A stretch of DNA of 64,000 nucleotides from an uncultured delta proteobacterium (lineage in GTDB: Bacteria > Desulfobacterota > Syntrophobacteria > BM002). The translations under genes were made by a program, and so were the position numbers. Below the pieces are notes generated by a model. The model saw only the letters and a program-made list of their open reading frames with translations. It ran no database searches and was not told the DNA's origin. This document shows, piece by piece, positions 55,405 through 64,000 of this stretch. The stretch spans positions 96,001 to 160,000 of the forward strand of contig CAVQGX010000031.1 of NCBI GenBank assembly GCA_963712115.1. Direction: 5' to 3'. How positions within the stretch are numbered: position 1 is the stretch's first letter; every line of letters begins with the position of its first letter.

Positions 55405-56688
55405 ATGGATATCAGCACAGCTGCAAAAGCCGCAAAGGCGGCTGCAATTCAATTGGCCGCCAGCGGAACTGATTTAAAAAACAAGGCACTTGAGGCAATC
55501 GCGGCCGAAATGTGGGCGCACAAAGAAAAAATCCTTGAAGCCAATGACAAGGACCTTGCCTTTAGCCGGGAAAACAACCTCGCGCAACCTCTTTTGAAGA
55601 GGCTAAAATTTGACCAGACAAAGCTTGCTGAGACGATCAGCGGGATTGAGAGCCTCATCGGCTTGCCGGACCCGGTTGGCGTGAGCCTCAGCGCCCGGGA
55701 ACTGGATGAGGGACTGGAGCTTTACCAGGTAACCTGTCCAATTGGGGTGATCGGCGTGATATTTGAATCGCGGCCTGATGCCCTGGTCCAGATTTCAACT
55801 CTTTGTCTGAAGAGCGGCAATGGAGTGCTGCTCAAGGGAGGAAGTGAGGCTGCTCACACCAATCGTGCTCTGGCTGATGTCATTGTCGCAGCGAGCGAAT
55901 CGGCAGGAATACCTGTGGGCTGGCTGCAACTGCTCGAAACCCGGGAGGACGTCAAGGAAATGCTCAAGATGGACGAGAGTATTGATCTCCTAGTTCCCCG
56001 GGGGTCAAACGAGTTTGTCAAGTTTATCATGGACAATTCCAACATTCCTGTCCTTGGGCACGCCGACGGTATCTGCCACGTCTACGTGGATAAAGAAGCA
56101 GATCTGACCATGGCAAGTAACATAGTGGTGGATTCGAAATGTCAGTACGTTGCCGTCTGCAACGCCGCAGAGACACTCCTCGTCCACGAAGCAGTGGCTC
56201 GCGACTTTCTGCCCATGCTGCAGAAAGCCCTTTCCCCCTACAAAGTGGAACTAAGAGGTTGCCCGAAAACGAGGGCGATTATCAAGGTGAAGCCCGCCAC
56301 AGAGGAGGACTGGCGCACCGAATACCTTGATACCATCATGTCAGTCAAGATTGTCACTAGCACGGATGAGGCCATAGAGCACATCAACACCTATGGTTCA
56401 GCTCACACGGATGCGATCGTCACTGCCAACCAAAATACTGCAAACCACTTCACGAACCTGGTAGATTCAGGCAATGTGTTTTGGAACTGCAGTACTCGTT
56501 TTAGTGACGGCTATCGCTACGGGCTAGGCGCCGAGGTGGGCATCAGTACCAGTAAGATCCACGCCCGCGGCCCGGTGGGATTGGAAGGTCTGGTGATCTA
56601 CAAGTGGCAAATCAGGGGTTCCGGACAAATTGTTGCGGACTATGCAGACGGGAGGCGCAAATTCACTCATCGTCCCCTTAAGAAGTAG
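55405..56688 (+). CDS. proA: Gamma-glutamyl phosphate reductase
   Basis: PIGVIGVIFESRP, LKGGSEA, VCNAAETLL, GAEVGISTSKIHARGPVGL. Confidence 0.95.
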   Translation: MDISTAAKAAKAAAIQLAASGTDLKNKALEAIAAEMWAHKEKILEANDKDLAFSRENNLAQPLLKRLKFDQTKLAETISGIESLIGLPDPVGVSLSARELDEGLELYQVTCPIGVIGVIFESRPDALVQISTLCLKSGNGVLLKGGSEAAHTNRALADVIVAASESAGIPVGWLQLLETREDVKEMLKMDESIDLLVPRGSNEFVKFIMDNSNIPVLGHADGICHVYVDKEADLTMASNIVVDSKCQYVAVCNAAETLLVHEAVARDFLPMLQKALSPYKVELRGCPKTRAIIKVKPATEEDWRTEYLDTIMSVKIVTSTDEAIEHINTYGSAHTDAIVTANQNTANHFTNLVDSGNVFWNCSTRFSDGYRYGLGAEVGISTSKIHARGPVGLEGLVIYKWQIRGSGQIVADYADGRRKFTHRPLKK

Positions 56689-56694
56689 TTTGCC

Positions 56695-56733
56695 GTCCGG
56701 ATGTTTCATCAATTGAGGTCGCGAGACCATGAA
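56695..56733. mobile_element. Degenerate truncated end of the 180-bp MITE
   Basis: GTCCGGATGTTTCATCAATTGAGGTCGCGAGACCATGAA vs GCCCGGATATTTCATGAATTGCTGTTGCGAGACCGTGAA. Confidence 0.6.
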
Positions 56734-56741
56734 ATTCGGCG

Positions 56742-57014
56742 CTAATATCTGCTTCTACGCCGCGGACGTTTACCTCGTGGTTCAGCTTGGTTAACCTTTA
56801 TACTGCGACCATTCAAAACCTTACCATTCAAAGCTTTGATCGCCTGGTCAGCTTCCGAGTTGTCTGGCATTTCCACAAAGCCAAACCCCTTAGGTCGTCC
56901 TGAGAACTTATCAGTGATGATTTTAACACTTGACACTTCGCCGAACTCAGAAAAGGCATTTTTCAGATCATTCTCTGTGACGTCATAGGCCAAGTTGCCA
57001 ATATACATATTCAT
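56742..57014 (-). CDS. RRM-domain RNA-binding protein
   Basis: MYIGNL (RNP2), KGFGFVEM (RNP1), Arg-rich tail. Confidence 0.93.
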   Translation of the reverse strand: MNMYIGNLAYDVTENDLKNAFSEFGEVSSVKIITDKFSGRPKGFGFVEMPDNSEADQAIKALNGKVLNGRSIKVNQAEPRGKRPRRRSRY

Positions 57015-57085
57015 AGATGCAATCCTCCATTAACACCCGTTGATTTAATTTGCACTATCAAATAATCAACGGCCCAAAAGGGAAA

Positions 57086-57116
57086 GGGCATCTCGTCTAA
57101 TCTCGGCGAGATGCCC
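57086..57116 (-). terminator. Hairpin after csp gene
   Basis: GGGCATCTCG...CGAGATGCCC followed by TTT on minus strand. Confidence 0.65.
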
Positions 57117-57138
57117 CCATTAAGCGTCTTACCGCCAA

Positions 57139-57339
57139 CTAAATCTTGGTGACGTTCACGGCAGCAGGACCTTTTTGGCCCTGCTCCACATTAAAAGTCA
57201 CACTGTCGCCTTCACTGAGAGATTTGAAACCCGTTGCGTTGATCCCCGAATGGTGAACGAATACATCCGGGCCATCTTCCTGCTCTATGAAGCCGTAGCC
57301 TTTGTGGTCATTAAACCACTTGACAATTCCATTAGCCAT
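57139..57339 (-). CDS. Cold-shock protein
   Basis: [30 protein letters not shown]. Confidence 0.95.
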
Positions 57340-57594
57340 AGTGACACCCTCCTTTCTAAAAAATTCTCATGGTCCCAAACTTGAGGTTGCCACTTTTGAC
57401 AGATGGATCTTCCCCCAGAACGAAACCGGGCCGCCAATAAAGACGGCCCTTTATTGATTGCTTGACGATAACCTACTTCTTCGATGGAAGTCAAATCATT
57501 TATTACTATTTCCTTCTGGAGGTAGCCATGGAAGGAGTTAATTCAGAAGTGCAGTGAGTGAGGAGAACTGGAAATTCAGTTCGATCATTGTGGG

Positions 57595-57695
57595 AGTTTA
57601 TATCCCTTAATCCACACTTCATTCCCCAAAAACCTGGCGCAACATGTAGTGCATTTCTCCAAATAGCAAGAAGTGTAGATTAAAGTATGTAATCT
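57595..57695. repeat. 101-bp inverted-arm element, copy A
   Basis: Left AGTTTATATCCCTTAATCCACACTT, centre CGCAACATGTAGTG, right AAGTGTAGATTAAAGTATGTAATCT. Confidence 0.9.
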
Positions 57696-58016
57696 TCAGT
57701 CCGAGGGCCGATTAAGGCCTTAGATACTACCGACCTAAAAGGTAGTCATCCGAGTGTACATATGACGAGCATATGTCGAATATTCACGGATGATCAAGAC
57801 TTAACCTAAATAGCAGATATTGGAAGTCATAGATCGTAAGACTCATATACAAGAGTTAGAAATGATGGATCTAGATCTGATGAACGGAAATGGTATGGTG
57901 GGGCATTTTAAAATAATACACTGTATGTAATAGAAAAGCTGTTATCATTGGTTGCGCCACTTCTGGATCTCATTCGAATAAACACGCTAGGCTAAGTAGT
58001 AGCTGTCTGCCATCTA

Positions 58017-58814
58017 CTATTTGTATATGTCCGACAAAGGTCGCCGTCGCCTGCCACCCATGATAAGCCCCACGATCCAGCCAAACGTCATAACCCCAGC
58101 ACCGTAGAGAAACCAACGCATATTGCTGGAGGATTGCAGCTTGTCGTAAGTACTCTGCGCTTCCGCGAGCTTCGTCTTCAACTCGGGTAGCTCTGAAGCG
58201 AGCTTTTCTTGAGCTTTCTGCAGTCCCAAGTAATTTGCAGCGCCCTTTTTGAGAGCCTCGTACTTCTTGCTAGTTGCCTCTAGATTCTGCTTGAGTGAGG
58301 CCAACTCTTTCTCGATCCTTTCATTCTCTTGCCCGAGTTCTCGACTACTAGTCTCAATTTCGCTTATTTGTAACTCGAGCCGTTCTTTTTCCTTTGCTAG
58401 TTTTTCGGCAGTGAATTTCCAGGGAGGCCTGTCAGAGATATACCTCTCAAGGGTCCAACCAGTTCGACCATCAGGTAGGCTTACCTGCGCCCAACCGTTC
58501 TCTATTCCGATCATGGTTACCGTTGTACCTATTGGCAATGCAGCTATAATACGATGACTGACATCCGGCCCACTTCGAAGGATAACCTCCAGGGTGGTAT
58601 CTGAGACATAAAGTGTCTCGGCCCAGGCTTTGACGCTGAACAACCATACAGTGAGTAATACTACATGGGCAACAAGTTGAATCGCTTTTCTCAATAGTCG
58701 TCTTTTTCGATGTGTTGTCATTACCCTCTCACATTTCGATGACATCGCAGGCAGCACTATCCAATGACAGAACTTGATCCATTTGGAGTATGACCATAAC
58801 TCTGTAAATCGCAC
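58017..58814 (-). CDS. SH3-domain/coiled-coil membrane protein (TIGR04211/YgiM-like); start uncertain
   Basis: AWAETLYVSD..LRSGP, GWAQV...GW, coiled coil, WFLYGAGV C-terminal TM, RRRR. Confidence 0.88.
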   Translation of the reverse strand: MRFTELWSYSKWIKFCHWIVLPAMSSKCERVMTTHRKRRLLRKAIQLVAHVVLLTVWLFSVKAWAETLYVSDTTLEVILRSGPDVSHRIIAALPIGTTVTMIGIENGWAQVSLPDGRTGWTLERYISDRPPWKFTAEKLAKEKERLELQISEIETSSRELGQENERIEKELASLKQNLEATSKKYEALKKGAANYLGLQKAQEKLASELPELKTKLAEAQSTYDKLQSSSNMRWFLYGAGVMTFGWIVGLIMGGRRRRPLSDIYK

Positions 58815-58947
58815 TATGTCAATAGCTTTAAGGATAGCGAATGAAAATCTTAAACCTTTTGTATTTCACTAATTCCTACGTTTACTTATCTTTTTGAGTC
58901 TTGACCTCATGGGTGGGCAGCATGGAGGGGTGGTGGATGCGGACTTT

Positions 58948-59048
58948 TTATTACATCCCTTAATTCACATTTACAGTTCTAGGGAGCATAGTACTACATC
59001 TTGCGACGGGTCAAAACGGGCGTGAGTGTGGATTAAAGTAATTACTTC
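58948..59048. repeat. 101-bp inverted-arm element, copy B
   Basis: Left TTATTACATCCCTTAATTCACATTT, centre TACTACATCTTGCG, right GAGTGTGGATTAAAGTAATTACTTC. Confidence 0.88.
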
Positions 59049-59227
59049 TTGGAGGGCGGTGCGACTTTAGAGATTGTGGGAAAGTTATTACGCTAGGTAC
59101 ATCATAGTAGGTTTAGTCTTCAGAGATATGGGATACTTCAACCTCCCTTTCCTCTTTATCAGAGATGCAACATTTGCTTTGGCCGACCCATGATTAACTT
59201 GTCATCTACGCAAAACTAGTAAGAACC

Positions 59228-59863
59228 TTATTTATTGATTAGTAGGATAAGCTGATCAGCCAAATCTGGGTCAAGATCTCTTAAAATTTTATATTCTTCC
59301 AGCGCTGATGCCCGGTCACCCTTCCTCAAGTAACACAGCGCCAGAGCATGGCGCGCCTGAGCAAATCCAGGGTTGATAAAGACCGCCTTCTTTAGCACCT
59401 CCATAGCCTTATCGTTAAAGCCAAGTATATTGTATGCTATTCCTAGTCCCAGGTAACCTTGTGCAGAGGTGGGACTTAACTCGATCGTTTTCTTAAAGTA
59501 CGTCAGTGCTTCCTCCCAGTTTTCGAGCCGGGCATAGATAACACCTAAAAAAAAATGGGGCGCTGAAAAATTTGGTTTGATTGCAATAGCATCACTGAAA
59601 GCAACGATAGCTTCCTGCCAACGCCCGAGACTATAATATTTCAATCCCTGATCAACATTTATTGAGGCGAGATAAGGCAGCGTGGGAACTTCCTGCTTGG
59701 CAATCTCATGCTTTTCGCGGATCTTATGGCGTTCGGGATGAGGCGCTATAGCCTCGCAAAATGCTTCTGTAATTGAGGACTGCCAAGTAAAAAGGACAAT
59801 TAAGAGCAATAAAACTGTCTTTGTAACCCCTAAACGCGATGTTATTTGCTTTCCTGGTAACAT
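59228..59863 (-). CDS. Exported tetratricopeptide-repeat protein
   Basis: N-terminal hydrophobic segment, ~4 TPRs, ALEEYKILRDLDP. Confidence 0.85.
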   Translation of the reverse strand: MLPGKQITSRLGVTKTVLLLLIVLFTWQSSITEAFCEAIAPHPERHKIREKHEIAKQEVPTLPYLASINVDQGLKYYSLGRWQEAIVAFSDAIAIKPNFSAPHFFLGVIYARLENWEEALTYFKKTIELSPTSAQGYLGLGIAYNILGFNDKAMEVLKKAVFINPGFAQARHALALCYLRKGDRASALEEYKILRDLDPDLADQLILLINK

Positions 59864-60174
59864 TAGACCTTCTAGATTAAAACGGTGATATCACTCTTCT
59901 TGATTAGACAAAAACCATACCAATTCAAGACCGCGAATAAATTACTTGTTTTCTCCTATACTTAAGAATAATTAGGATGGCAAAAGGGTCTCAAAACCAA
60001 AGTAACTAAGTTCATAGATTTGGCATATTAGTTCCAACATTTAGAAATTTTAGGGATAGGACAGAGCAGGAAAGCTTGGACTGGCACAGGAGGGTACTCG
60101 CTAAGAATAAGAGTGGAAGAGATAGCAAATAAAGGTCATAAATGGAAACCTTATCTCACCCACTTAAAAACTGA

Positions 60175-60275
60175 AGATTACATCCCTTAATTCACACTAT
60201 TGGCTCTAAAGACCCTAGCACAGAATGTGGTACGTGCCCCCGAAGGGGCAAAGTGTAGATTAAAGTATGTTATAT
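60175..60275. repeat. 101-bp inverted-arm element, copy C
   Basis: Left AGATTACATCCCTTAATTCACACTA, centre CACAGAATGTGGTA, right AAGTGTAGATTAAAGTATGTTATAT. Confidence 0.9.
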
Positions 60276-60299
60276 GAAGTCCCACTGGAATCGTAGGAG

Positions 60300-60414
60300 A
60301 GTTTACATTATAACGCTGAAACTTGAATCCAAGGTAAGCTGGTCCATAGCGAGAGAATACAATATGTAGTAGTAAGGTCTCGGACGCTAAAGTTTAGATT
60401 AAAGTATGTAATGT
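60300..60414. repeat. Inverted-arm element, copy D (degenerate left arm)
   Basis: Left AGTTTACATTATAACGCTGAAACTT, centre TACAATATGTAGTA, right AAGTTTAGATTAAAGTATGTAATGT. Confidence 0.8.
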
Positions 60415-60451
60415 TCACTCACCACTGAAAAACCAACGAAGTTGTTAACCC

Positions 60452-60477
60452 CGTCCGACTGCAGCGAGTTGTTGGGC
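60452..60477 (-). other. Truncated integron attC-like half-site
   Basis: Minus strand GCCCAAC-AACTC-GCTGCAG-TCGGACG (RYYYAAC start) ~150 bp downstream of the DUF2254 gene. Confidence 0.55.
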
Positions 60478-60625
60478 GCCAATCTACATGGCACGAATAA
60501 ATTGCGTTTTTTTATCGCTAGTTCTCAGCATGTCGTGCGTATGCTTTCTCAATAATTCAAACAAGGATGTTCCCTACCGCTTACTTACGGCAGCACGACA
60601 CTTCTAATCGCGCGAACTCATTCTG

Positions 60626-61888
60626 CTAAACAGAACTGGCGAATTTCGCCAACTTTCGCACAACCTCCAGGTCTTCAGGAATTTCTAGCACATTTTCTGC
60701 TCTAGCAAGTGCCAAGCGGGAATGGTGTATCGCGGCGTTCCGCATCTCGGCATCTCCGATCGCTGCCAGCGACTCAAACGCCTTTTGTAGCCGCCCCGCG
60801 ACTTCAATGGCACCAGCCCCGTCACGAGCAATCGCTGTGAAGGCATCATCAAACATGTCCCGCAAAGATATTTTGGGCACCTCCACGCGATCACATTCAG
60901 AAATTCGTGTGTCGCCTTCTTCGATAGGCTCACTCCAGAGCGCAAAAAGTCGCACGAACGTTCCAATAATGACGATTGCCGTACCGGGATCATTGACAGC
61001 AGGTGACAACGCTCGACTTGCGATTTCAGAAAGAACGATAAGACCGAATCGAGGATCTTCGTCGAATTGTCTGTCATTACCGAGCACAAATGCCTGTGCT
61101 ATCTGACTTGCATCGATATCAGAAAAATCACCTGAGTCTGCGGTCACATAGGCAAGAGCCCGGCCCGGCGCAGAAAAAGTACCGGGCAAGGCTGCTACCG
61201 TGATTCGTACCCGCGATTTTTCCGCATACGTCTGTAGCGCAGTGACATCTACGCGCTGTACATATCCGATCGACCCGCTGTAAATGGCGTGACCCCTATT
61301 CTGACGCCACCCCGCAGGGACGCCGCAAAGGGTAGGTGCGCATCGCCTTCGCTGTAAAGCAGCAGCAGTCGCTGCCTCAACCTTATCGATGGTTCCCCTG
61401 AGGCGCCCAAGGCGTGCGATGCGATCCACCCAACTCACGAACGTAATAATAACCATGGCAAGAATCATTAACGTTAGAGCAAATAACGCGAAACGGCCTG
61501 CTCTATCGTAATAGCCATTCTTTAAGGCGATAAGCGCGACGATGCTGAAGATGAAGGCACCAATAAAGGTCGAGAGAGCGTTCTGGGAAACGTCGTCGGA
61601 GATGACCAGAGAAAAAGAGCGCGGCGTTGCGGTGCTGCTGGCCGAAGCATAGGCGGAAACCATCGATGCGACAGCAAAGGTGGCGATCACCAACATGCTT
61701 GCGGAAATAATGGTAAGCAGGGTCTCTATTGAGTCTGGAGTAATCGCCGGAACAAGCTGACCGATTTCGGTATTGTCCACCGTCTTCGCAAGGAACACTA
61801 AGCCCGTTGACAGCACGCACATCGCGAGAGGCCTGACCCATAGCCGCTCTCTGATGCGGTTTAGAAGGAACCTCAATCGATCACCCAT
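60626..61888 (-). CDS. DUF2254 membrane protein
   Basis: ASSTATPR, LSTFIGAFIFS, DPRFGLIVLSEIASRALSPAVNDPGTA, IARDGAG; ATG with GGAG RBS. Confidence 0.9.
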   Translation of the reverse strand: MGDRLRFLLNRIRERLWVRPLAMCVLSTGLVFLAKTVDNTEIGQLVPAITPDSIETLLTIISASMLVIATFAVASMVSAYASASSTATPRSFSLVISDDVSQNALSTFIGAFIFSIVALIALKNGYYDRAGRFALFALTLMILAMVIITFVSWVDRIARLGRLRGTIDKVEAATAAALQRRRCAPTLCGVPAGWRQNRGHAIYSGSIGYVQRVDVTALQTYAEKSRVRITVAALPGTFSAPGRALAYVTADSGDFSDIDASQIAQAFVLGNDRQFDEDPRFGLIVLSEIASRALSPAVNDPGTAIVIIGTFVRLFALWSEPIEEGDTRISECDRVEVPKISLRDMFDDAFTAIARDGAGAIEVAGRLQKAFESLAAIGDAEMRNAAIHHSRLALARAENVLEIPEDLEVVRKLAKFASSV

Positions 61889-62255
61889 TACTCCACTTCC
61901 CGTAGTTCGGTATGACGGTCCGCTACAGATCTCTTTTCCGGTGGTCAAATTAGTCGGCAGGAATCCTTTTCGCATGTAGAGTTCTACAGTGCATGTTGAT
62001 TATTACTAACATCTGTTTAGGTAGAAAGCAAACGTTTACCACTCTTGACGCCCAACCTTGAATTATACGGCGTATTATCCGCTTTATAATGCGGAAAGTC
62101 TCATACGCATATCGTAAATTGTGAAAAAATACAGCTACTTGTTTGATAACACTCACGATATTGAAAACGAAAAATATCGAAACCGACATCCGCTCTGATC
62201 ACAACCAAAAATACCCGGACAGACTTCCGCAAGAAAAGGGCCATTGCAAAACTAT

Positions 62256-62361
62256 AAATTACATCCCTTAATTCCCACTCCCGGCGTTGACGAGTCTAGC
62301 ACGAAATATGGGGGTCGTTCAACAAGGGGCCCACTTACGTGTGGATCGAGTTATATAAAGT
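62256..62361. repeat. Inverted-arm element, copy E
   Basis: Left AAATTACATCCCTTAATTCCCACTC, centre CACGAAATATGGGG, right ACGTGTGGATCGAGTTATATAAAGT. Confidence 0.8.
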
Positions 62362-62385
62362 TTCCTATTGGTTTGCTAGGAGTAA

Positions 62386-62487
62386 ACATAACATCCCTTA
62401 ATTTAAACTTGACCGGAGGTTCATTCTACACAATATGTTGAGAGTAGTAATGTCCGGACACTTTAGGGGGATTAACTGCTGATTTAA
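62386..62487. repeat. Inverted-arm element, copy F (degenerate right arm)
   Basis: Left ACATAACATCCCTTAATTTAAACTT, centre CACAATATGTTGAG, right residual GGGGATTAA. Confidence 0.75.
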
Positions 62488-62501
62488 TAAATATGTACTT
62501 A

Positions 62502-62681
62502 GCCCGGATATTTCATGAATTGCTGTTGCGAGACCGTGAAGATGGGCGTGCCACCTGGCAACCGCAGCGTGTTGGTTCCGAGGCGTACCTGAAAGGTACG
62601 TCGCAGGGACCGACACCCGAGGACGCCAGGAAGGACGGCCATATCCGCGGTCGCAGCAGGTGATTCATGAAATATCCGGGC
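62502..62681. mobile_element. MITE, 180 bp, TA-flanked (copy 2, inverted relative to copy 1)
   Basis: Same perfect 19-bp TIRs, 10 substitutions vs 36278-36457. Confidence 0.92.
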
Positions 62682-62740
62682 TAGTGTTTAGTGCCAGGTT
62701 GAAATAGCTGCCCGCTGTCTGCTGCCTGCTGGGTGAGTGC

Positions 62741-63337
62741 CTAGTGTTCTCCAAACCCCGCCCTTTGCACCAACGCACTTACCACGGACTCATACAGCTC
62801 TCTGCTGCCAGTGAGAAGCTGTTCTAGTCTGTCTTGATACTCATTCCTCTCGGGAGATGCTTCCATGAGACTGAGATTGGCTTGAGCAATTCGATGAGCA
62901 CCACTTATCGTGGCCCTTAGGAGCTCACAGACAACCAAAAGATCTGAAAGTAGATGGCCCTTACAGTGCACCCCCGCCCTGGCCACGAAATTGACGGCTT
63001 CATTGGCCTCTTCCATTATGCTAATGGGGCATTCGATTGCCTGCTGCAGCGCCTCCAAGACCTCTGTCTTGCCTTTTCCGAAGGTCTTGGCCTGGGCAAA
63101 ACGCGCATAGGCCCTGCCGTCTTCATCACGGAGATGGAGAAGAGTACTCAATGATTTTTTCACCTCCTGGAGCAAATTCCTCCATTCAGCTTCAGAGGAG
63201 TCGCGGCTACGCTGAAGTTCCACCTGAACGATTTTTTCTAGCAGCGCCAAACCCACACATGCCCCATGGGCTGCTGCGGCACCGCCTCCGGGCACAGGAT
63301 ACGGTCTGGCAAGAGCGTCTATGAACGAATCAACCAT
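62741..63337 (-). CDS. Formiminotetrahydrofolate cyclodeaminase/cyclohydrolase family protein
   Basis: FIDALARPYPVPGGGAAAA, DEDGRAY, LLSDL. Confidence 0.82.
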   Translation of the reverse strand: MVDSFIDALARPYPVPGGGAAAAHGACVGLALLEKIVQVELQRSRDSSEAEWRNLLQEVKKSLSTLLHLRDEDGRAYARFAQAKTFGKGKTEVLEALQQAIECPISIMEEANEAVNFVARAGVHCKGHLLSDLLVVCELLRATISGAHRIAQANLSLMEASPERNEYQDRLEQLLTGSRELYESVVSALVQRAGFGEH

Positions 63338-63505
63338 AATTTCCTTCCCGGGCCATCACCTATGATGTTTGACTGCATTGTTGTTAATGCTTATCAGAGA
63401 TTAACTTATGGATACAGCAAAATATTAATTATTGGTGATTCTCTTTGATTGCCAGAGAATACAAAATACCGGGTAAAATATCATATCGAAAAAGGAGTCT
63501 CGAAT

Positions 63506-64000
63506 ATGAAAGCCTTAGCAATCAACGAGTTCGGCGGACTAGATAAATTGCAACTCATGGATCTACCCGTGCCGGAAATCAGACCAGGGGAGATTTTAGT
63601 TAAAGTGAGAGCGGCCGGGGTCAATCCTGTAGACTGGAAGATTCGGGAGGGCTATCTCAAAGATCTTTTTAGCCATCAGTTTCCCGTTATTCTGGGGTGG
63701 GATGCGGCTGGCGTTGTGGAAGGGGTAGGCAAGAACGTAACGAGATTTAAGTCAGGGGATGAGATTTTTGCCTACTGCCGCAAGCCCATTGTCCACGGGG
63801 GAGCATACGCGGAATACATTTTGCTGGAAGAAGAGCATGCCGCTATAAAACCGAAAAATATTACCTTTGAGGAGGCAGCCTCAATTCCACTTGCTGCACT
63901 AACTGCTTACCAGTCACTATTCGATGCGGCAAATCTCCAGCCAGGAGAAACCATTTTAATCCATGCTGCTGCAGGAGGAGTAGGAGGCTTCGGGGTACAG
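63506..64000 (+). CDS. NADP-dependent quinone oxidoreductase (MDR family), runs off window
   Basis: Manual translation MKALAINEFGG...AAGVNPVDWKIREG...ILGWDAAG...LTAYQ...HAAAGGVGG; AAGGAG RBS. Confidence 0.9.
   Translation, partial: MKALAINEFGGLDKLQLMDLPVPEIRPGEILVKVRAAGVNPVDWKIREGYLKDLFSHQFPVILGWDAAGVVEGVGKNVTRFKSGDEIFAYCRKPIVHGGAYAEYILLEEEHAAIKPKNITFEEAASIPLAALTAYQSLFDAANLQPGETILIHAAAGGVGGFGVQ

Follow-up and report, generated by a model that had tools for sequence, protein, structure and literature searches.

In the genome of an uncultured delta proteobacterium (assembly GCA_963712115.1, here G000), a 64,000-nt stretch of one contig (C31:96001-160000, hereafter the window) carries an array of six related repeat elements, A to F, that alternate with single genes. 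These elements are best explained, with modest rather than high confidence, as sites of the tyrosine-recombinase core type, particular to the genus, that delimit exchangeable DNA modules. Their family has a fixed geometry, and its members are clustered and share one polarity. DNA on either side of the sites forms mosaic junctions, the window locus varies among relatives, and a recombinase gene lies inside the element in some of them. We infer that this recombinase cuts the cores and that cassettes move by excision and re-integration. G000 is a metagenome bin of 4.9 Mb in 70 contigs, with 94% completeness and 6% contamination. A first-pass annotation of the window had suggested a gene-cassette recombination system at this place. 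That idea is largely supported, its mechanism being not proven, and the array that it took to be a local set of six copies belongs in fact to a genus-wide family with about 100 left and 70 right cores in G000. Coordinates without a contig name are window positions.

Anatomy of the core sites

A sequence reading of positions 57000-63000 together with a repeat search found co-oriented repeats at all six places where elements had been proposed. Searched with an nhmmer profile made from themselves, A to F score E = 5.5e-14 to 2.9e-26 in the whole 4.9-Mb genome, which is far beyond chance. The left arms of A, B, and C begin at 57595, 58948, and 60175, and the right-arm block AGTGT.GATTAAAGTA begins at 57672, 59025, and 60252, so that the offset is 77 in 3/3 and the exact 101-bp length and fixed geometry ascribed to these three elements are confirmed. 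The coordinates and the single orientation of all six also stand. As complete elements, however, only part of the set survives: D (60300-60414) has a good right arm but no left arm in its left part, the right arm of E is decayed, and F consists of a left arm and about 35 nt, without a right arm.

Alignment of the copies shows that each arm is itself a 29-bp core, in which a near-invariant spacer of 7 bp separates an outer from an inner arm of 11 bp each. The outer arm is weakly conserved, with a consensus of about AGTGTGAATTA. The inner arm is conserved, reading TAATTCACACT at left cores and AGTGTGGATTA at right cores, and is an inverted repeat of the outer arm. The left-core spacer is CATCCCT in 90/96 copies and the right-core spacer is AAGTATG in 50/51, the two being imperfect inverses that match at 5/7 positions. 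This arm-7-arm layout is that of a tyrosine-recombinase-type core site. The central motif of the elements is a conserved CACA..ATGTG / GGCACAAGAT.TTG, in place of the central 14-bp dyad first described; no clean dyad is present. Readings of GGCACAAGAT.TTG as a sigma-54 promoter or an IHF site, as well as a presumed likeness to E. coli dif, were made only by eye against consensus sequences and were not used as evidence.

Integron boxes have the geometry AA|C-N5-G|TT, and the core layout and the crossover position here are parallel to it. Of the 96 left cores, 64 have TAC and 13 have AAC as the triplet at this position; among the 51 right cores, 25 have GTA and 6 have GTT. The attC boxes R'' (RYYYAAC) and R' (GTTRRRY) are not kept at the matching positions of these cores. 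The triplet counts set the family apart from attC, and the 7-bp spacer and the same-motif arms set it apart from the 28-bp dif, as had been proposed. The further claim that the elements match neither holds for their sequence, but their geometry is that of the integron R/L boxes, and the sites are thus not wholly unrelated to them.

Pairing of the consensus arms in full elements is free of bulges, with mismatches at just 2 positions, both in the spacer, and the consensus hairpin has no extrahelical bases. A minority of elements carries a 5-nt deletion in the right arm. Single-strand folds reach z <= -2.2 in 4/6, and the minus strand of B (z +0.64) folds no better than shuffles. Outer arms fit their loose consensus without pair-specific complementarity. 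A mini open reading frame (ORF) running into the left core, with a conserved 45-nt left flank, was also considered and dropped, 0 in-frame ORFs being found at 48 anchored sites.

Clustering, polarity, and cassette-like layout

Separate nhmmer profiles for the left half (LH) and the right half (RH), at a cut-off of E<0.05, detect 172 half-sites in G000, 101 left and 71 right, on 35/70 contigs. A neighbour lies within 5 kb for 153/172 half-sites (89%), against about 30% expected at random, and 121/123 adjacent site pairs have the same orientation. The biggest arrays hold 22, 17, 11, and 9 sites, and the window array has 8 half-sites. The right-core spacer motif occurs within 40-260 nt for 28/97 anchored left cores, at spacer-to-spacer distances of 81-83 bp (14 cases), 76-77 bp (2), 137-140 bp (7), and a scattered 96-246 bp (5), and the two-armed 101-bp element is a minority form of the family. 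Left-only sites retain about 75 conserved nt, namely the core, some 20 nt, and then GGCACAAGAT.TTGAGA, and usually come after a terminator hairpin or a gene end on the gene strand.

The layout of the arrays is cassette-like. The longest ORF runs opposite to the site orientation in 71/87 inter-site intervals (30,531 vs 7,101 aa in total), and the median interval is 1.5 kb. The left core comes after the terminator of the cassette gene, that is, the site stands at the 3' end of the gene. Clustering, co-orientation, and alternation with single co-oriented genes, which had been noted for the window, are thereby properties of the genome-wide family. Ten genes sampled from the array on contig C3 are unrelated singles: a response regulator, two PilZ, AMIN, OmpA, PKD, GNAT, GATase, a LuxR-type regulator, and one of no assigned kind. 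The SH3_3 gene of the window array has paralogues or homologues in other arrays or contexts in C9, C66, G005, G006, G007, G011, and G012, with adjoining sites found for those of G005 and G006, and a homologue of the TPR gene in G006:C197 is again bounded by a left core.

Insertion sequences also occur in the arrays. An IS110-family element of about 1.3 kb (Pfam Transposase_20, DEDD_Tnp_IS110) stands at the same arm-motif point (TAATTCACAC^) in four different sites (Table 1), and its single insertion point indicates that it targets the cores sequence-specifically. Another insertion sequence, about 1.35 kb long, has terminal repeats of 21 bp, 8-bp duplications, and a broken ORF; it is found at C5:19154-20500, C11:77437-78802, and C58:11428-12776, and sits within a core in 2/3 copies. 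A 1,444-bp insert, 100% identical at C34:2175-3618 and C5:10562-12005, interrupts a cassette that is intact in C3; it encodes a 438-aa ORF that by its look is a putative rve/IS3-type transposase.

Distribution in the genus and variation of the locus

The genus of G000 (g1) was represented by G000 and 17 relatives, and a sister genus (g2) by one genome. An 18-nt core motif, allowing <=2 mismatches, occurs 85 times in G000, in 17/17 other g1 genomes, and in the single g2 genome; it was found in 0/42 genomes of other genera searched, and a reversed-pattern control gave 0-1 matches. At the window locus, the flanking genes for an aldehyde dehydrogenase and an FTCD_C protein are conserved in relatives, and the DNA between them differs. 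G000 has a 6-kb island there. In G016 and G006, the interval is 433 bp long, with one gene, J-domain-like from a reading of its translation, and a site is not detectable. Two other genes occupy it in G007, together with one left-only core by the FTCD_C gene, in the position of F. In addition, the cold-shock gene (csp) flank is kept up to the outer arm of A in four genomes (G000, G005, G015, and G010), beyond which each has different DNA; in G010, no core is recognisable at that flank. Gene content and junctions at this locus vary among relatives.

Exchange of DNA at the cores

When the array regions are compared with themselves, many duplicated segments appear in differing contexts. After removal of three insertion-sequence families, 55/222 paralogous block ends lie <=60 nt from a site centre, in comparison with 4.8% of random points. 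All pairs of 144 anchored sites were then compared, a pair being called mosaic when identity was >=90% on one side of the core and <=45% on the other. This yields 18 mosaic pairs, nine with a common inner side and nine with a common outer side. In 5/9 of the pairs sharing the inner side, identity runs outward to the last base of the outer arm. In two pairs, one outer module stands on a left core in one copy and on a right core in the other, and identity ends after ATTA+CAT, where CAT represents the three bases common to left and right spacers. This end point places the exchange at the border of outer arm and spacer (ATTA|CAT). Element C and a copy at C28:12239 are alike from ACATCCC to AAGTATGT, save a few bases by each cut point, and both of their flanks are unrelated. 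On contig C4, the sequence passes from C3-like to C2-like at AAGTATGT, and the two parents have about 8 nt in common, which is too little for an assembly chimera. By reading, no target-site duplication flanks the 36 full elements or the junction pairs, and an even scatter of the sites over the genome is likewise not seen, so that the conditions named in the first-pass annotation as refuting its idea do not refute it.

These mosaic junctions demonstrate exchange at the cores. Gene capture and shuffling, as the first-pass annotation had it, is supported in so far as the arms show junction variation inside the genome as well as among relatives, whereas the movement itself is what we infer from them and was not observed. 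The suggested search for circle junctions was run on public sequencing runs and on the genome, and no circle junction was found. The four public runs, from marine-sediment and estuary metagenomes, contain 25-62% of the locus words and are kept as short contigs. Inter-element joints in these runs (57603>62395, 57695/57700>60177, 58972>60389/60391, and 60198>60403) were rejected as excision products and treated as repeat cross-matches, since their sides of 22-44 nt are explicable by repeats.

A small Xer-like recombinase as the candidate enzyme

G000 encodes a tyrosine recombinase near one of its arrays (Table 1). Its best NCBIfam match, of the XerA type, scores 119 bits and stays below the cut-off. 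Among solved structures, XerA (4A8E, the closest) and XerD are nearest to it. The alignment retains a motif that we take to be the catalytic R..HxxR..H..Y signature. The proteins of this kind are 262-278 aa long, the G006:C123 type having 262 aa and the C3 copy 278 aa. In G005:C209 and G006:C123, the two close-type, non-decayed copies that have upstream sequence, a left core precedes the gene by 130-185 nt (about 185 nt before the start codon), and a right core begins about 60-70 nt past the stop codon. A right core is found 60-185 nt downstream in 5/7 copies with downstream sequence (G005:C209, G005:C536, G006:C123, G018, and G011); upstream sequence is missing for G005:C536, and the G012 copy has decayed core remnants only. 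The gene runs in the plus direction of the element, opposite to the cassette genes, and is preceded by a promoter-like TTGAGA-18-GATAAT with an upstream TG, which overlaps the conserved accessory motif of the sites. Because the recombinase gene in relatives sits between a left core and a right core, this 262-278-aa Xer-like protein is likely the enzyme for these cores.

At E<=1e-20, the protein family comprises 2,674 clusters, whose names do not go beyond 'integrase', 'XerD', or 'site-specific integrase'. Many other Desulfobacterota bins have relatives of about 50-55% identity, several of them in multiple copies; the paralogues there have about 0.85-1.1 kb in common around the gene, and one pair has 1.85 kb. 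The LH and RH profiles match only the loci of the closest recombinase relatives. A search for short inverted repeats around 50 distant homologues with enough flank gave one clear 26-nt pair (L062), by an insensitive method that missed the known cores of L052, and a repeat search at the distant locus L116 was uninformative.

Proposed mechanism and points against it

According to the proposed mechanism, the two flanks of a core would be inherited separately, with the break at ATTA|CAT. Two types of module would be exchanged in this way: single-gene segments, each with its own terminator, and short core-to-core segments of about 97 or 153 bp. Such separately inherited modules would build up integron-like co-oriented arrays. 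The enzyme for the window sites would act in trans, presumably from the gene on contig C3. The first-pass annotation had likewise placed the enzyme in trans; a candidate tyrosine recombinase, which would cut these sites, does exist. The absence of a recombinase from the window also agrees with the present search, in which an integron-integrase model that also detects Xer-type proteins has no match on C31.

A more tentative proposal, and one that is somewhat doubtful as a whole, is that the sites and the small Xer-like recombinase make up a previously undescribed gene-cassette system that is independent of IntI. A unit of about 1.1 kb (core, recombinase gene, and core) would give rise to solo cores and short empty modules, at which single genes would be captured and shuffled, and the relatives of about 50-55% identity may run lineage-specific versions.

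Several observations weigh against the reading of the elements as recombination cores that bound modules. The recombinase is found (E<=1e-20) in just 7/18 g1 genomes and in G018, five of these copies being of the close type with at least 67% identity, and the copy of G000 itself has no recognisable left core and a decayed right core. As many as 69/97 left cores are without a right partner. Block ends at sites are fewer on the 3' side of genes (20/116) than on the 5' side (35/106), and on the 3' side the homology of duplicated cassettes often ends 30-130 nt before the site. The outer arms do not covary, scoring 6.4/11 within an element and 6.3/11 across a gene where the background is 6.5. Neither excised circles nor empty sites nor inversions were seen; the public runs consist of short contigs, and short motifs for hypothetical circle or head-to-head junctions have 0 matches in G000. 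Moreover, with 6% contamination of the bin, some of the duplicates may be strain variants.

Alternative explanations

The most serious alternative, though an unlikely one, is a family resembling miniature inverted-repeat transposable elements (MITEs). The 101-bp and approximately 160-bp elements would then derive by internal deletion from a mobile unit of about 1.1 kb and be non-autonomous; they would insert into permissive intergenic DNA, integron arrays included, without mobilising the genes between them. An autonomous-looking unit with the same ends does exist, namely the left core, recombinase, and right core of G006:C123 and G005:C209, and the short elements fall into two discrete size classes. 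The comparison of C with C28:12239, in which the whole stretch from ACATCCC to AAGTATGT is shared between unrelated flanks, is also what such an element would leave behind. Positions 60311-60332 in D agree at 21/22 nt with DNA that follows the G012:C325 recombinase gene at a distance of about 100 nt, in the 3' region of the unit, so that D may by its sequence be a remnant of a recombinase-bearing unit, and the common units around the Desulfobacterota paralogues point the same way. On the other hand, the lack of target-site duplications, the clustering (89%), the co-orientation of 121/123 pairs, and the strong gene-strand bias are not expected of a MITE. The 69 solo left cores nevertheless keep their conserved 75 nt or so, and gene segments, too, swap at the cores, as the nine pairs sharing the outer side only show. 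Inverted ends are, in addition, ill-suited to simple excision by a tyrosine recombinase, which was also counted against this alternative.

It is quite improbable that the sites are divergent attC sites for the integron integrase of the genome, in which case the window array would be an ordinary attC cluster lacking integrase (CALIN). A bona fide, full-length IntI is present at C27:2356-3300 (+) (TIGR02249, 487 bits vs a cut-off of 265), and the arm-7-arm geometry and crossover position, like the one-gene polarity, recall integron cassettes. Only 10 canonical attC matches exist in G000, and six of them are right halves fused directly after a right core, co-oriented with it (Table 1). Outside the intI array, no left attC half was found in G000. 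The four canonical attC sites beside intI (CTAAC...GTTAGG, about 118 bp) are nevertheless unrelated in sequence to A to F and constitute a different family. The triplets, which at left cores are mostly TAC and at right cores seldom GTT, also disagree with attC: IntI1 is reported to tolerate a changed second or third GTT base when one partner site has it, whereas recombination drops drastically when both carry the same mutation (PMC2811028). The consensus hairpin is without the extrahelical bases of attC, and the 69/97 sites that have no second half cannot fold. IntI was found in 4/18 g1 genomes, against 18/18 for the sites, which weakens a dependence of the sites on IntI, although the bins are incomplete and absence is not proven. 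The integron-like layout, and possibly a related history, is still suggested because the core geometry matches the R/L boxes and because integron and attC remnants co-occur with the sites. As for the integron itself, C27:1-3300 is a true integron with small minus-strand genes upstream of intI, and since the contig begins inside an attC, the array extends past the assembly.

Very improbable is the view that the elements are cis-regulatory or structural repeats (operators, terminators, or small RNAs) without a role in recombination. Many left cores do follow a terminator hairpin on the gene strand, the accessory motif overlaps the promoter-like sequence upstream of the recombinase gene, and four of the six single-strand folds are more stable than shuffled sequence at z <= -2.2. 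However, the minus-strand fold of B lacks such stability, scanning the window for promoters and terminators gives no more than shuffled sequence does, or less, the distance from element to start codon is variable (134, 256, 281, and 312 nt), and an Rfam covariance scan of 56500-64000 has no family matching the elements. Mosaic core junctions, moreover, would be left unexplained. Repetitive extragenic palindromes or bacterial interspersed mosaic elements (REP/BIME) with their associated Y1 (HUH) transposase (RAYT) were rejected, as the four PF01797 matches (C56, C64, C48, and C20) adjoin no site, and the sole one in an array region, C48:16547-16906, is >2 kb from the nearest site.

The window array and its surroundings

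The features of the window array, together with the related features elsewhere in G000, are listed in Table 1. The single further match on C31 is at position 2917 of that contig, outside the window, and the statement that the 64 kb holds no additional copy is therefore upheld. The family search assigned the three cargo genes as they had been named, that is, to SH3_3, TPR, and DUF2254. The RRM and csp genes to the left of A are part of the same variable island, and the FTCD_C (cyclodeaminase-type) gene lies to the right of the array. Three features had been overlooked at first: the attC right half at 60417-60476, the outward 11-bp arms, and a 182-bp MITE at 62499-62680.

Table 1. Coordinates of the array features in the window and of related features in other contigs of G000
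Feature	Position	Strand	Remarks
RRM gene	56742-57014	-	left of A
Cold-shock (csp) gene	57139-57339	-	left of A
Element A, complete class-1	57595..57700	+	E 5.1e-21
A, left core	spacer 57601-57607; inner arm 57608-57618	+	spacer TATCCCT
A, right core	inner arm 57672-57682; spacer 57683-57689; outer arm 57690-57700	+	spacer AAGTATG
SH3_3-domain cassette gene	58017..58814	-	between A and B
Element B, complete class-1	58948..59048	+	E 2.5e-23
B, cores	left spacer 58954-58960; right inner arm 59025-59035	+	left spacer CATCCCT; variant right spacer AAGTAAT
TPR cassette gene	59228..59863	-	between B and C
Element C, complete class-1	60175..60280	+	left spacer 60181-60187; right spacer 60263-60269; E 2.9e-26
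Element D, right end only	60300..60419	+	right inner arm 60391-60401; spacer 60402-60408
Right half of canonical integron attC (..CTGTTAACCCCGTCCGACTGCAGCGAGTTGTTGG)	60417..60476	+	fused directly after D
DUF2254 membrane-protein cassette gene	60626..61975	-	followed on its own strand by the attC half, then D and C
Element E	62256..62361	+	good left core, spacer 62262-62268; decayed right arm; E 2.9e-22
Element F, left core only	62386..62444 (end approximate)	+	spacer 62392-62398; inner arm 62399-62409; accessory motif ~62425-62444
Right core, ~20 nt, and attC right half	window 60417-60476; C54:12876; C54:16755; C42:183916; C60:7134; C27:118283		same orientation always
Tyrosine recombinase, 278 aa	C3:1094-1930		2.7 kb from an array; Pfam Phage_integrase
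IS110-family copies in cores	C42:17052-18362; C41:2009-3329; C36:18372-19682; C48:12583-13884

The 182-bp repeat is flanked by TTAG and CTAG and has perfect 21-nt terminal inverted repeats (62500-62520 / 62663-62683). At this place it is missing from contigs in 4/4 metagenome runs, where 62498 is joined to 62681, the only solid joint in those runs, and its depth is hundreds of times that of the adjacent DNA. There are 20 full-length copies in G000, and copies of about 91-97% identity in most of the genus genomes listed. The repeat is an active-looking MITE separate from A to F.

The sole Rfam match in 56500-64000 is a weak one to the cspA thermoregulator (57083-57452, minus strand, 29 bits vs a gathering score of 78). 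It spans the cold-shock gene and its leader; the csp unit is multicopy in the genome and the genus, with 79-91% identity.

Significance and comparison with known systems

Integrons are the textbook route by which bacteria stockpile and shuffle single genes. If the present reading is true, a second system of similar layout would mean that the stockpiling of single genes evolved or diversified more than once. Its distinguishing traits are a site sequence of its own, mostly single cores of the double-strand type, and a small Xer-like enzyme inside some sites. Tools keyed to IntI and to the attC consensus would then probably overlook cassette pools in sediment bacteria. The system is also compact, its core being 29 bp and its recombinase about 265 aa long, and is possibly a useful recombination tool. 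In the portions of the literature on integrons, pdif, and MITEs that were available, no description was found of this site family or of a small Xer-like recombinase inside cassette sites, which is not proof of being unpublished.

Integrons: As in the integron, arrays consist of co-oriented, imperfectly palindromic sites, each after a single co-oriented gene, a full element contains two 'simple sites', and the crossover falls at the border of a 7-bp central region. IS1111-attC elements insert into attC, and the IS110-family insertion into the present sites is likened to them. In contrast to the attC arms (RYYYAA|C...G|TTRRRY), those of the present sites read ATTA|C...G|TAAT. Moreover, extrahelical bases are absent, single cores make up most of the sites, the family does not track IntI across the genus, and a small Xer-like protein, with its gene inside some of the sites, is the candidate enzyme.

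Modules of pdif and dif: Sites of the dif and pdif type are 28 bp long, with an 11-6-11 layout and distinct XerC and XerD arms, whereas the sites here are 11-7-11 with near-identical arms, which indicates a single recombinase. According to two reports, Xer-type pdif sites bound modules of one or a few genes, neighbouring sites are inverted, the modules shuffle, and insertion sequences target the sites (PMC6449649, PMC10132070). The modules of Acinetobacter plasmids thus share with the present system the short Xer-type sites around shuffling modules and the insertion sequences at the sites. The present arrays differ in being chromosomal and mostly of direct repeats, and in their recombinase, which is apparently encoded by the element rather than being the host XerC/D. 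Inverted bounding sites exist here only where a right core is present (28/97), and most neighbouring cores are direct repeats.

Shufflon and Mycoplasma sites: The sfx sites of the shufflon, recombined by Rci, resemble the cores here in that the spacer measures 7 bp and that one arm is conserved and the other poorly so. The vpma/vsp loci of Mycoplasma, served by Xer1, resemble the present arrays in having single genes in a row, a conserved site at each, and a small Xer-like recombinase nearby. In both the sfx and the vpma systems, expression is switched by DNA inversion and genes run in both directions, in contrast to the co-orientation of 121/123 site pairs and the species-variable gene content found here.

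Correia-type MITEs: The Neisseria elements of this type are similar in size (classes near 100 and near 160 bp), in ending in inverted repeats, in lying between genes, and in being present in many copies. On the contrary, the present family lacks target-site duplications, has strong clustering and polarity, and consists predominantly of solo ends. Its partner element, moreover, carries a tyrosine recombinase and not a DDE transposase.

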